NCBI GenBank assembly: GCA_964524735.1
Contig: CAZGCV010000004.1
Span: 1-45,653, forward strand
Length of the DNA: 45,653 bases
Direction: 5' to 3'
Source of the DNA: an uncultured Candidatus Saccharibacteria bacterium
GTDB taxonomy: Bacteria > Patescibacteriota > Doudnabacteria > UBA920
Shown here: piece after piece, positions 1,066-45,147 of the stretch
How the letters are laid out: each line of letters begins with the position of its first letter
How positions within the stretch are numbered: the first letter of the stretch is position 1
Notes under the pieces: model-generated
What the model saw: only the letters and a program-made list of their open reading frames with translations
The model's database searches: none
Told to the model about the DNA's origin: nothing
Translations under genes and position numbers: made by a program

Positions 1066-1094
1066 TTGACATTGTGAAAAATTTATGATAAGAT
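1066..1094 (+). promoter_or_regulatory. Sigma70-type promoter TTGACA-17 nt-TAAGAT with TGn extension
   Basis: TTGACA at 1066-1071, 17-nt spacer, TG at 1086-1087, TAAGAT at 1089-1094. It sits immediately after the upstream stop codon. Confidence 0.6.
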
Positions 1095-1100
1095 ACATTT

Positions 1101-1608
1101 GTAAGTTAATTAGTTCTTTGAAAATAAAATAAAAACACACTGCAGTTAACCAAAATAGTTAGTTGCAGAGCAAACTGAACCGAGGGGATCTGCGCTTGAG
1201 GATCTAGAGACTCATTTGAGCGTAGCTTTCCTTCTTACTTCTCGTCATAGCCTATTCTAATCTGGGCTGATTGAAAAACAAAAATAAAATGTAGGTTCTT
1301 CGCTCCTTATAAAGCGACAAAAATTTTTCCAAAACAAAAACAAAATAAAAGAACAAAAAGTTTAGGTCTTCGGACCACAAGAGAAGTTTGGAGTGCAGTT
1401 TGCAATTGATTAGAGTGTAAGCTTTATCTTTCAGCATCGTGGTTGAAAGACGCTTGAAGTTAACGAAAATGTTAGCTGCTGTTCTAGGTCTAGGTTCTCA
1501 AAGGTTGGGAACCTGCATCTAGAACGGCGACTAGCTCGAAGCTTCGGGTTAGCGCCACTACCGGCCTGTTCATTTATATAATAAGGGGCCCGAGTAGGGG
1601 CGCTTTTT
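1101..1608 (+). ncRNA. Candidate structured non-coding RNA of about 500 nt, family unassigned
   Basis: No credible ORF. Consensus promoter at 1066-1094. Helices at 1140-1168, 1190-1196/1219-1225, 1365-1376 (GGUC-UUCG-GACC), 1459-1476 and 1478-1528. Closing stem plus U-run at 1551-1608. Confidence 0.45.
1551..1608 (+). terminator. Long imperfect stem plus T-run closing the non-coding locus
   Basis: AGCGCCACUACCGGCC (1551-1566) pairs with GGGGCCCGAGUAGGGGCGCU (1585-1604), followed by TTTTT. Confidence 0.5.
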
Positions 1609-1661: not shown

Positions 1662-1967
1662 ATGTTATCACAAGAATTTATTGATGAAATGCGCAGCAAG
1701 CTCTTATCAGAACAAGAACGCCTGACTACTGATTTAAATGGTTTGTCTGAGCATACTGAACTAGGCAATGAATACGATGATCAAATTCAGGAAGTGGAAT
1801 TAGATGAAGTTAATCAGGATGTGCGTAGTCGTATTGAATCTGATTTGCTAAAAATCGAAAAGGCTTTAGCTAAGATCGAATCTGGTACTTACGGTACTGA
1901 TGATAATGGCAATGAAATTTCTGAAGAACGCTTACGTGTCATTCCTTGGGCAGATGAAGCAATATAA
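1662..1967 (+). CDS. DksA/TraR-family (YteA-like) protein lacking the Cys4 zinc finger
   Basis: The C-terminus IESGTYGTDDNGNEISEERLRVIPWA matches the DksA/TraR G-x-Y-G-x-C..C-x-x-I-x-x-x-RL-x-x-x-P-x-A pattern, with the cysteines replaced. An acidic coiled-coil N-terminus precedes it. Confidence 0.6.
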   Translation: MLSQEFIDEMRSKLLSEQERLTTDLNGLSEHTELGNEYDDQIQEVELDEVNQDVRSRIESDLLKIEKALAKIESGTYGTDDNGNEISEERLRVIPWADEAI

Positions 1968-44327: not shown

Positions 44328-44919
44328 TCCAATCCTTGCTGCTGTTATAGAAAAGTACGCTCTTAAGGAGGATCGTAAAAAGTCTGCGAATCATTTCCGT
44401 ACTTTAGTTGAGTCGATTGTTTCTCAGCAGCTTTCTGTTAAAGCTTCGGATACTATTTTTAAACGTTTTTTAGAATTGTTTGCAAAGCAATCTGGTATCA
44501 AAAGTTTTCCAAAGCCAGAATCGGTTTTAAAGATGTCCGATATTAAACTTCGGAAAGTTGGTTTATCAGCTCAAAAAATTAAGTACATTAAAAATCTATC
44601 TGAGAAAATCAGTAAAAAAGATGTCCAGCTGAACCGTTTAAGAAAAATGTCTGATGAAGAAGTAATAGAGCATCTTGTTCAGGTTAAAGGGATTGGGCGC
44701 TGGACTGCAGAAATGTTTTTGATGTTTTCCTTGCAAAGACCAGATGTATTTTCGCATGGAGATTTAGGTTTGCGAAATGCCATCATAAAGCTTTATGGTT
44801 TTAAAAATCCTCCTACTTTTGAGCAAATTGAGGAGATTGTTTCTGTGTGGTCGCCGTATCGTACTGTGGCTAGCAGATATCTTTGGAAAAGTTTGGAAAA
44901 TTCTCCAAAAAACCCTTGA
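44275..44919 (+). CDS. HhH-GPD DNA glycosylase (DNA-3-methyladenine glycosylase II, AlkA-like)
   Basis: ESIVSQQLS, the HhH motif VKGIGRWTAEMFLMF, and the catalytic-Asp region FSHGDLGLRNA. The ATG at 44275 is preferred over the TTG at 44269. It overlaps the upstream gene by 53 nt. Confidence 0.8.
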   Translation: MSKKNLKSDPIKYLQLADPILAAVIEKYALKEDRKKSANHFRTLVESIVSQQLSVKASDTIFKRFLELFAKQSGIKSFPKPESVLKMSDIKLRKVGLSAQKIKYIKNLSEKISKKDVQLNRLRKMSDEEVIEHLVQVKGIGRWTAEMFLMFSLQRPDVFSHGDLGLRNAIIKLYGFKNPPTFEQIEEIVSVWSPYRTVASRYLWKSLENSPKNP

Positions 44920-44944
44920 CAAGCAGTAAAAAAATGCTTAATAT
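44916..44944 (+). promoter_or_regulatory. rRNA operon promoter TTGACA-17 nt-TAATAT
   Basis: TTGACA at 44916-44921 and TAATAT at 44939-44944, about 460 nt upstream of the 16S 5' end. Confidence 0.65.
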
Positions 44945-45134
44945 AGTGAAGGATCAATCAGTAATCCACAGGAGATTTAAAAAGGCAATAAACATAGGCA
45001 ATTCTACTCAAATGTAACTACGGTGATTATTTGAGGTCCGGCAAGCTTTTAGCGAGTTCCGGAGAATGAGCACTCTACGTCCAGAGTAATAGACGTACGA
45101 GTTTTTTATTTCCCTAAATCGGCCTTTGGTCCAC

Positions 45135-45147
45135 TGCACTTTGACAA
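45135..45147 (+). promoter_or_regulatory. boxA-like antitermination element in the rRNA leader
   Basis: TGCACTTTGACAA versus the E. coli rrn boxA TGCTCTTTAACAA (11 of 13 positions match). Confidence 0.35.

Follow-up and report, generated by a model that had tools for sequence, protein, structure and literature searches.

A conserved, structured noncoding RNA gene of about 0.5 kb upstream of a DksA-like gene in Patescibacteria

Introduction

The ornate noncoding RNAs OLE (RF01071), GOLLD (RF01998), ROOL (RF03087), and the raiA-motif RNA belong to a class about 0.5 kb in size with many covarying helices and tertiary contacts. Like the RNA described here, they are orphans that were found by comparative genomics and whose functions were unknown or only partly known at the time of discovery. 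The present RNA is encoded on the plus strand at positions 1101 to 1608 of a stretch of 45,653 nucleotides (contig CAZGCV010000004.1 of assembly GCA_964524735.1, positions 1 to 45,653 of the forward strand; hereafter, the window) from an uncultured Candidatus Saccharibacteria bacterium that GTDB places in the Doudnabacteria of the Patescibacteriota. A first-pass annotation, made from the letters of the sequence, had seen in this locus either a new large noncoding RNA or an unusually long structured leader of the dksA-like gene at 1662. It is the first of these options that our analysis bears out: the locus has no Rfam match, occurs in single copy throughout its class, and forms helices that covary strongly.

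None of OLE, GOLLD, ROOL, and raiA matches the RNA at E ≤ 10. In contrast to them, it is universal in its class, single copy, and chromosomal rather than patchy or prophage linked; it also has a boxA-like motif in its leader and long A-rich single strands of invariant sequence. OLE, GOLLD, and ROOL have been studied as isolated RNAs by cryo-EM (PMC12286853). A-rich single strands between hairpins are a feature that it shares with CrcZ and CrcY (Hfq/Crc, A-rich CA motifs) and with CsrB and RsmZ (CsrA), and CrcZ gave the sole subthreshold Rfam alignment over the A-rich tract (E = 3.5, 9.8 bits against a gathering score of 95). Such sponge RNAs string repeated sites together in a loose structure, whereas the fold of this RNA is rigid and long-range, includes a kissing loop, and has two A-rich segments that are each unique; the likeness to CrcZ is one of form only, because the genome lacks Hfq.

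With 6S RNA (RF00013) and Ms1, the locus shares a promoter of the kind that serves abundant RNAs, a housekeeping distribution, and a possible link to transcription through its DksA-like neighbor, but it lacks the 6S-type rod with a central bubble, is two to three times longer, and is strongly conserved in primary sequence. The leader of an rRNA operon likewise combines a consensus promoter with a boxA-type motif that follows it (G2, C5, Y6, U8), whereas here the two belong to a separate 0.5-kb non-rRNA unit about 44 kb from the 16S gene. RNase P RNA (RF00010), finally, is comparable in size, multidomain, universal, and single copy, and it has long-range and loop-loop contacts of the same kind; the present RNA differs in having neither the conserved regions CR-I to CR-V nor a match to RF00010.

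Results

The locus encodes an independently bounded, structured RNA

The source genome, 99.4% complete, consists of 49 contigs that add up to 0.79 Mb. In the window, about 600 bp (1064-1661) separate the stop codon of the upstream gene (1061-1063) from the ATG at 1662. As the first-pass annotation had stated, this gap has no credible open reading frame (ORF), just two antisense ORFs at 1252-1437 (61 aa) and 1431-1628 (65 aa). We aligned 47 nonredundant homologs (<93% pairwise identity) with MAFFT and derived a consensus structure with RNAalifold. No ORF on either strand is conserved at the RNA locus among these homologs, and the longest one shifts in strand, place, and length even among close relatives, in some of which it is merely 25 to 29 aa long. 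On this ground, we rejected a coding gene on either strand.

In line with the large noncoding RNA that had been proposed, the locus proved to be conserved among relatives, and RNAalifold predicted 66 base pairs from the 47 sequences, 48 of them with compensatory changes. In an independent count, 95.6% of cells were paired; the figure fell to 80.7% in column shuffles and to 39 to 48% when the 3′ partners were slid. Changes on both sides were seen in 475 cells, against 135 in the shuffles, and none of 500 shuffles reached the observed value on any measure. The plus-strand fold of 1101-1612 has a free energy of −165.6 kcal/mol, compared with −122.6 ± 5.9 kcal/mol for dinucleotide shuffles (z = −7.3). 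That the plus strand is the one expressed, as had been supposed, agrees with the promoter, the boxA-like motif, and the terminator, all of which read in this direction. These results show that positions 1101-1608 (plus strand) are a single-copy, independently bounded gene for a noncoding RNA of about 510 nt whose fold has been kept by evolution, and we have little doubt that this structured RNA gene is real and independent.

A covarying core domain and a covarying kissing loop

The helices of the RNA and the evidence for each are as follows.

1140-1168, plus strand: insertion hairpin of 11 bp (minimum-free-energy structure)
1171-1176 / 1397-1402, plus strand: P0, tentative long-range helix, 5′ strand AAACUG with CAGUUU
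1185-1193 / 1222-1230, plus strand: P1, enclosing a variable hairpin (1185-1230); 5 of 7 pairs compensatory, 91% paired
1231-1243 / 1381-1393, plus strand: P2, 13-bp long-range helix closing the core domain; 98% paired, 7 pairs compensatory
1248-1254 / 1263-1269, plus strand: P3 hairpin, preceded by the invariant UCGUCAUAG; covariation
1300-1304 / 1313-1317, plus strand: P4 hairpin (1300-1317); 5 of 5 pairs compensatory, absent in family f3
1365-1367 / 1374-1376, plus strand: P5 hairpin GGUC-loop-GACC (1365-1376), followed by the conserved ACAAGA junction; stem invariant
1398-1403 / 1417-1422, plus strand: P6 hairpin (1398-1422), helix 7 of the consensus; covariation
1427-1450, plus strand: P7, variable hairpin (minimum-free-energy fold); homologs have a hairpin of different sequence at the same spot
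1452-1461 / 1540-1549, plus strand: outer helix of the 3′ domain (1452-1549), around P8; minimum-free-energy fold and compensatory pairs seen by eye
1471-1475 / 1531-1535, plus strand: P8, first tier, GUUAG with CUAGC; covarying
1478-1487 / 1519-1528, plus strand: P8, second tier; covariation
1493-1499 / 1507-1513, plus strand: P8, third tier; covariation
1552-1556 / 1599-1603, plus strand: outer pairs of the terminator, helix 10 of the consensus

The most conserved part of the RNA is the core domain (1231-1393), which is closed by P2 and holds three hairpins. A long-range pairing of ACUUCUC with GAGAAGU had been put forward as a possibility; covariation establishes it and extends it to the full length of P2. 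On a wider, model-based alignment that includes other families, P2 and P3 still hold, with 92.4% of cells paired and 116 cells changed on both sides. The P3 stem occurs in forms such as AGCC/GGCU, AGGAG/CUCCU, and AGUCUG/CAGACU. Its loop, CUAAUC (1257-1262), forms a kissing helix with the P6 loop, GAUUAG (1408-1413), in which 94.7% of cells are paired and five of the six pairs show compensatory changes, the variants including CCAAUC/GAUUGG, CCAAAC/GUUUGG, GCAAUC/GAUUGC, UAAGUC/GACUUA, UAAGCC/GGCUUA, and CCAGUC/GACUGG. The hairpin described earlier as a GGUC-UUCG-GACC tetraloop keeps its stem as P5, but the UUCG is not a conserved element, because the P5 loop varies among homologs.

Outside the core, the CUGC/GUAG part of a CUGCGCU/AGCGUAG helix recognized in the first-pass annotation is supported by covariation within P1. 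P0, in which 90% of cells are paired and four pairs show compensatory changes (for example, AAGCUA/UAGCUU and UAACUA/UAGUUA), stays tentative because it competes with the outer part of P6. In the 3′ domain, 20 of the 22 pairs of P8 (helices 8 and 9 of the consensus) have compensatory changes, which substantiates the bipartite helix that had been drawn at 1478-1528. A separate hairpin GUUAAC-GAAAAU-GUUAGC had also been drawn, at 1459-1476, and is not supported: GUUAG (1471-1475) pairs with CUAGC (1531-1535), and 1452-1461 pairs with 1540-1549 instead, compensatory examples of the latter helix being CUGAAAG/CUUUCAG and GAAUGAA/UUCAUUC. The 11-bp hairpin at 1140-1168 does fold in this sequence, as had been seen, but it is a lineage-specific insertion that is absent from most homologs. 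We also considered a pseudoknot between UGUAGG (1291-1296) and CCUGCA (about 1511-1516), the two sides of which are nearly invariant, the lone variable position showing no covariation.

Invariant A-rich single strands

Within the core, two long stretches remain unpaired and nearly invariant in sequence.

1270-1295, plus strand: A-rich single-stranded tract UGAUUGAAAAACAAAAAUAAAAUGUAGG, unpaired in the consensus
1318-1364, plus strand: second A/C-rich, G-poor linker, conserved in most of family f1

In the first tract (consensus UGNAAAACAAAAAYAAAAUGWAGG), almost none of the A and C residues varies within the class, and other families of the Candidate Phyla Radiation (CPR) have diverged forms such as CAAAAACAAAAAC. 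The second linker is partly replaced by a small AU hairpin in some genera. Several A-rich single-stranded motifs of the form AAnAAnAA fall within these stretches (1274-1289 and 1318-1360), where they are conserved and unpaired in the consensus. Two further segments, UCGUCAUAG before P3 and ACCAYAAGA after P5, are unpaired and invariant or nearly so.

The RNA occurs once per genome throughout the class and extends beyond it

By BLASTN, all 24 genomes of the genus have the locus, with 72 to 84% identity over 440 to 550 nt, and the core is found in other families of the order. An exact core pattern, TCGTYATAG...CTG...AAAACMAAAA, matched 84 of 146 genomes of the order, and a reversed control pattern matched none. 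With R1, a covariance model of the core built from window positions 1220-1393, there was exactly one match in 98 of 101 genomes of the class, all six families being covered; the three genomes without a match are fragmented assemblies that are 89 to 95% complete.

Under strict filters, R1 gave three weak matches only among 144 other Patescibacteria genomes. One of the genomes with such a match (G241, of family f43) has the same order as the window, namely, a DinG-like helicase gene, the RNA, a DksA-like gene, and LspA. To gather further loci, we used a profile of the DksA-like protein, which was found in 92 of the 151 genomes sampled from the phylum. When R1 was run on these loci with its filters off, its best weak match preceded the DksA-like gene, in the same orientation, in 12 of 23 loci of other families. 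These diverged loci share a plan in which a long-range helix (for example, CUGUUC.../...GAAUGG) surrounds a hairpin and a CAAAAACAAAAAC-type tract, with a structured 3′ part and then a terminator after the core. Clear homologs, at about 60 bits, are found on contigs labeled Kerfeldbacteria and Parcubacteria. Because homologs stand at the matching position in other CPR families, the RNA family is older and wider than the class, and weak model matches backed by synteny suggest that it may extend across the phylum.

Three loci of family f27 (L202, L208, and L210) carry, about 600 nt upstream of their DksA-like genes, a structured, terminator-ended noncoding unit of about 0.5 kb with a strikingly conserved hairpin, UUAGGGAGUAUUUCCCCCUAUACUCCCUAA, and an A/C-rich tract. 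This unit is possibly the f27 version of the same RNA.

Transcription signals resemble those of the rRNA operon

The signals that bound the gene or lie near its 5′ end are the following.

1051-1059, strand not assigned: DnaA-box-like 9-mer TGTGGACAA, the reverse complement of TTATCCACA with one mismatch, 7 nt upstream of the −35 element
1066-1094, plus strand: sigma-70-type promoter, TTGACA-17 nt-TG-extended TAAGAT (promoter scan and conservation)
1113-1124, plus strand: boxA-like motif GUUCUUUGAAAA at +13, putative NusB-NusE (S10) site (invariance and parallel with the 16S leader)
1551-1608, plus strand: intrinsic terminator, a long GC-rich stem followed by UUUUU (covarying helix 10, 97% paired)

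The promoter, whose strength had already drawn attention, is the top-scoring site within 800-2600 and begins 2 nt past the upstream stop codon; the arrangement TTGAC(A)-N-TGnTAnnAT is present at 64 of 68 homologous loci. At the other end, the stem and U-run with which the locus had been said to close do have the form of a terminator, the outer pairs of which are 97% paired among the 47 homologs, and GCGCUUUU of this terminator is conserved in all members of the class.

In published work, boxA, to which NusB-S10 binds in rRNA antitermination, is marked by the key positions G2, C5, C/U6, and U8 (PMC3177189). The boxA of Aquifex is GGCUCCUUGGCA, from which that of E. coli differs at positions 1, 6, and 9 (PMC3177189). 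In the RNA, a stretch at 1112-1123, AGUUCUUUGAAA, agrees at the key positions, and G1113, C1116, U1118, U1119, A1121, and A1123 of the boxA-like motif are invariant in 47 of 47 sequences (G..C.UU.A.A). The degenerate form GYWCYTTGAMAA has just two matches in the 45.6-kb window, where 0.25 would be expected by chance: one is at the RNA locus, and the other is in the 16S leader (45136-45147). A boxA-type motif is present 210 to 290 nt upstream of the 16S gene in three of the four relatives that we checked and near the 5′ end of diverged CPR versions of the RNA, and nusB is encoded in the source genome (contig C11:10295-10666). We also entertained a pairing between the P8 loop and the CUUUGA motif near the 5′ end; relatives do not retain it, and boxA explains the motif better.

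The rRNA promoter of the window (44917-44945) is itself a consensus TTGACA-17-TG-extended TAATAT, and the boxA-like motif of the 16S leader, GCACUUUGACAA, lies about 215 nt after it and about 260 nt before the 16S gene. The 16S leaders of relatives keep G..CYUURACA, followed by CUGMAUAGUGAUU. A DnaA-box-like TAATCCACA stands just past the rRNA promoter at 44963-44971; its occurrence across the four relatives is inconsistent, and we therefore rejected it as a common trait of rRNA leaders, finding it in the leader of this window only. Looser boxA-like motifs (GYWCYUU.A.AA) occur in 5′ untranslated regions at C13:12777(−), C3:8024(−), C5:10005(+), and C2:36407(−), just upstream of the GGAGG Shine-Dalgarno sequences of protein genes; either chance or additional targeting by Nus factors could explain them. 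The presence of GGAGG in these regions indicates that the organism uses Shine-Dalgarno sequences. In a six-frame translation of the genome, a weak test, we did not find a Rho-type Walker A motif (PP[KR]xGKT; PPKAGKT). This hints weakly that the organism may lack Rho, a loss that would matter for why boxA is retained.

The DnaA-box-like 9-mer (≤1 mismatch to TTATCCACA) occurs at a fixed position in 25 of the 47 nonredundant loci, against a background of 0.083 per 145 nt. This position is −49 in the sub-genus of the source organism and +7 to +11 in most other lineages, and in family f2 the 9-mer is inverted. Because its orientation flips between families, we take it to be a site that acts at the level of DNA. 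It was not found within −100 to +45 in about half of the genus (for example, L020-L040). The RNA gene lies 48 to 81 kb from dnaA in five genomes of three families.

The RNA belongs to no described family, and the genome appears to lack the SRP

We searched with the 4,227 models of Rfam 15, applying the gathering score over the whole window and E ≤ 10 over 950-1750. At the gathering score, the window contains a 16S fragment and two tRNAs only, with no match at the RNA locus. At E ≤ 10, the locus gave only chance-level matches, to Phe_leader (on the wrong strand, 18.8 of 55 bits), MIR7996, and the CrcZ model, and none to large-subunit, small-subunit, or 5S rRNA. The models included the families with which the first-pass annotation had proposed that the locus be compared (OLE, GOLLD, ROOL, and raiA) as well as T-box, riboswitches, RNase P RNA, transfer-messenger RNA (tmRNA), signal recognition particle (SRP) RNA, and 6S RNA. 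Nor did we find a large CPR RNA of this kind in the literature searched. Matching nothing described in Rfam 15 or in that literature, the RNA is new.

The identities that had been dismissed on the strength of missing motifs or of length could now be set aside on firmer grounds. The genuine RNase P RNA (RF00010) is encoded on contig C19 (6203-6549, 115 bits), and the locus in the window has neither a match to this model nor CR-I to CR-V. ARAGORN finds no tmRNA in the window, and RF00023 matches contig C1 (18518-18908). The locus has no match to RF00013, and its multidomain fold, with junctions and a kissing loop, is not the rod with a bubble that characterizes 6S RNA. RF00013 had no match anywhere in the source genome either, which is weak evidence that 6S RNA is missing, because the model detects only 5 of 14 controls.

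SRP RNA had to be weighed with care, because an RNA that is universal and strongly promoted deserves suspicion when neither RF00169 nor RF01854 has a match in the genome. Neither model had a match in the window, in the source genome, or in 61 genomes of the order, and the RNA itself has no domain-IV-like motif and no model match at E ≤ 10. The SRP proteins are missing as well. We did not find the Ffh M domain (PF02978) or the SRP54-type GTPase domain of Ffh and FtsY (PF00448) in the source genome, none of the six frames of which contains DTAGR, a near-invariant motif of SRP54-type GTPases. Across 146 genomes of the order, these GTPase and Ffh domains gave one match only, on a 1.6-kb contig in a bin with 8% contamination, and the domains were not found in five more distant genomes that carry the RNA or in 151 genomes across the phylum (controls, 14 of 14 positive). 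The entire SRP pathway thus seems to be missing from the source genome, its order, and the phylum sample, and SRP subunits have been reported absent in many CPR bacteria (PMC8080830). As Ffh is absent from the genome, the order, and the phylum sample, the RNA cannot be an Ffh-bound SRP RNA. We rejected a divergent SRP RNA on this ground, since with Ffh and FtsY absent it would have no partner, and SRP loss does not track the distribution of the RNA. A sponge for Hfq was likewise rejected, Hfq (PF17209) not having been found in this nearly complete genome.

The RNA is embedded in a conserved gene order

One gene downstream of the RNA is closely linked to it.

1662-1967, plus strand: DksA/TraR-family gene (101 aa), linked downstream; orthologs pass the PF01258 cutoff

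The window protein itself has no Pfam match. A DksA-like gene is the next gene downstream, on the same strand, at 89 of 102 loci, and the exceptions are mostly contig ends. The zinc-finger cysteines of the protein are graded in their retention: all four are lost in the source genus (GTYGTDDNGNEISEERLRVIPWADEAI), one or two are kept in families f2 and f3, and all four remain in distant CPR lineages (L111 and L179). Judged from these sequences, the zinc site is being lost stepwise from an otherwise conserved DksA-like protein. LspA lies downstream in 69 of 78 loci, and a DinG-like gene lies upstream of the RNA in 65 of 84, with recA in its place in family f3. The conserved order is therefore DinG-like gene, RNA, DksA-like gene, and LspA. 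Proteins of the DksA/YlyA-like family bind the secondary channel of RNA polymerase, and YlyA binds RNA polymerase. In Bacillus subtilis, the DksA-like ylyA adjoins lspA.

In the source genome, the upstream ORF (2-1063) has no Pfam match. Its positional counterpart at L179:2448-3158 carries, by eye, the C-terminal motifs of a DinG/Rad3 helicase (TATFWQGIDIPGE..., ...GRLIRSKKDRG), which fits with eroded helicase motifs in the upstream ORF of the source genus.

Discussion

We read the locus as the gene for a trans-acting structured RNA that is transcribed in a boxA/Nus-type manner and serves as a platform for protein, and we put the probability of this reading as a whole at about 0.5, a blend of tiers that differ in strength. 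Transcription would start at the near-consensus sigma-70 promoter, which is probably modulated through the DnaA-box-like site that flanks the unit or falls just within it. The nascent RNA would display boxA at +13, recruiting NusB-S10 and Nus factors as in rRNA operons, and an RNA polymerase modified in this way could traverse and fold the long untranslated RNA before the terminator releases the transcript. The mature RNA would then act in trans, as a stable ribonucleoprotein scaffold or a sequestering RNA, its rigid framework, locked by the kissing loop, presenting the invariant A-rich single strands and junction nucleotides to a protein partner. Among these parts, boxA-type transcription is rather probable, given the motif and its setting, and the platform mechanism is a tentative model. 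The transcription machinery seems the most plausible area of action, because the linkage to the DksA/YlyA-like gene holds at the scale of the phylum and the control signals are rRNA-like.

Several observations weigh against this reading. The strict boxA-like 12-mer is not enriched genome-wide (3 occurrences against about 2.4 expected from base composition), so that the boxA assignment rests on position, invariance, and the rRNA parallel, and the 16S leader of one of the four relatives has no match to the loose boxA pattern. The genome lacks Hfq, the protein classically known to bind ARN-type A-rich tracts. Family f3 has neither P4 nor the AUGWAGG end of the A-rich tract, and the platform is thus not universal in all its parts. 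The linkage to DksA could reflect inherited gene order rather than function, and the adjacency of ylyA and lspA in Bacillus suggests that part of the synteny may indeed be inherited. The transcript start near 1101, placed from promoter spacing only, the end near 1608, and the abundance and stability of the RNA are inferred. Lastly, a ribozyme or a ligand-binding pocket would account for the invariant junction nucleotides just as well.

Few free-standing cells have genomes as small as those of CPR/Patescibacteria, yet the reduced genomes of this class devote about 0.5 kb and one of their best promoters to the RNA. Its retention in a reduced genome argues that it does something important, probably of a housekeeping kind, which none of the described RNA families explains. 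If boxA is used as proposed, this would be a rare case of a nonribosomal stable RNA with apparent rRNA-type antitermination. A far wider claim, which we think unlikely, is that it is a housekeeping RNA of the whole Patescibacteria, made with boxA and Nus factors under DnaA-box control, and acting as a co-regulator of polymerase with the DksA/YlyA-like protein or as an RNA enzyme; were it true, the RNA would be a fifth stable RNA universal in the phylum, beside rRNA, tRNA, RNase P RNA, and tmRNA, in organisms that lack the SRP. The defined fold with its kissing loop, the invariant tracts, the boxA-like element, the DnaA-box-like site, and the fixed neighbor gene are handles that make binding or activity directly testable in vitro, without culture.

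A more specific version of our reading would make the RNA a global regulator directed at RNA polymerase, analogous to 6S RNA or Ms1 and perhaps working with the DksA/YlyA-like protein, that tunes transcription to the state of growth or replication. The tight phylum-scale linkage to a DksA/TraR-family gene, the rRNA-like promoter and boxA signals, the DnaA-box-like site at the promoter of a gene 48 to 81 kb from dnaA, and the failure to detect in this genome a 6S RNA, which is widespread in bacteria, would all suit such a role. Against it stand an architecture of multihelix junctions and a kissing loop in place of a rod with a central bubble and a strong conservation of primary sequence that 6S RNA does not have, and the adjacency of two genes is no evidence that their products bind each other. 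We would call this specific version doubtful.

The second option of the first-pass annotation, a cis-acting leader or attenuator of the DksA-like/LspA operon in which some signal would decide whether the terminator at 1551-1608 forms, has in its favor that the RNA immediately precedes the DksA-like gene, in the same orientation, at most loci and that the T-run abuts the upstream region of that gene. We consider it improbable. At 510 nt, the RNA far exceeds the size of known leaders. No pairing that could compete as an antiterminator is seen in the minimum-free-energy, centroid, or consensus structures, and P8, the helix 1452-1461/1540-1549, and the terminator stem are separately stable and covary. 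The terminator is strong and conserved in all homologs, and in families f1 and f3 its T-run is followed by elements that resemble a promoter for the downstream gene; in family f43, a gene on the opposite strand separates the RNA from the dksA-like gene; and in two Kerfeldbacteria-like genomes, the RNA is retained where no DksA-like gene lies downstream.

An RNA with an activity of its own, in which UCGUCAUAG and ACCAYAAGA would form the active site or a ligand pocket, is a model that we rate marginally lower still. A large RNA with tertiary structure, invariant unpaired nucleotides at a multihelix junction, and a covarying kissing loop is a pattern known from RNase P RNA and the self-splicing introns. 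Yet no ribozyme family in Rfam resembles the RNA, there is no candidate substrate and there are no flanking exons or repeats, and long unstructured A-rich tracts are unusual in the cores of ribozymes.

Least probable are two further explanations. A known housekeeping RNA (SRP RNA, 6S RNA, RNase P RNA, or tmRNA) that has diverged very far would explain why the gene is universal, single copy, and strongly promoted as these are, and SRP RNA and 6S RNA went undetected in the genome, but RNase P RNA and tmRNA are encoded elsewhere, the partner proteins of SRP RNA are absent, and the locus has neither a domain-IV-like motif nor a model match at E ≤ 10. A DNA-level element (for DnaA titration or associated with the origin) or a small-protein gene, suggested by the DnaA-box-like site at a fixed position, the AT-rich tracts, the distance of 48 to 81 kb from dnaA, and an AUG (1290-1292) after the A-rich tract, is largely refuted by covariation, which includes long-range and loop-loop pairs on one strand, by the presence of one box per locus, and by a UAG that directly follows the AUG here, the frames being variable elsewhere; a replication origin was rejected because of the covarying helices, the single box per locus, and the distance from dnaA. 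In the source genome, this AUG and UAG make up a start-stop at 1290-1295, and relatives toggle between UAG and AAG after the AUG, which yields short frames of variable length. From its sequence, AAUGWAGG behaves as an RNA motif rather than as a gene.

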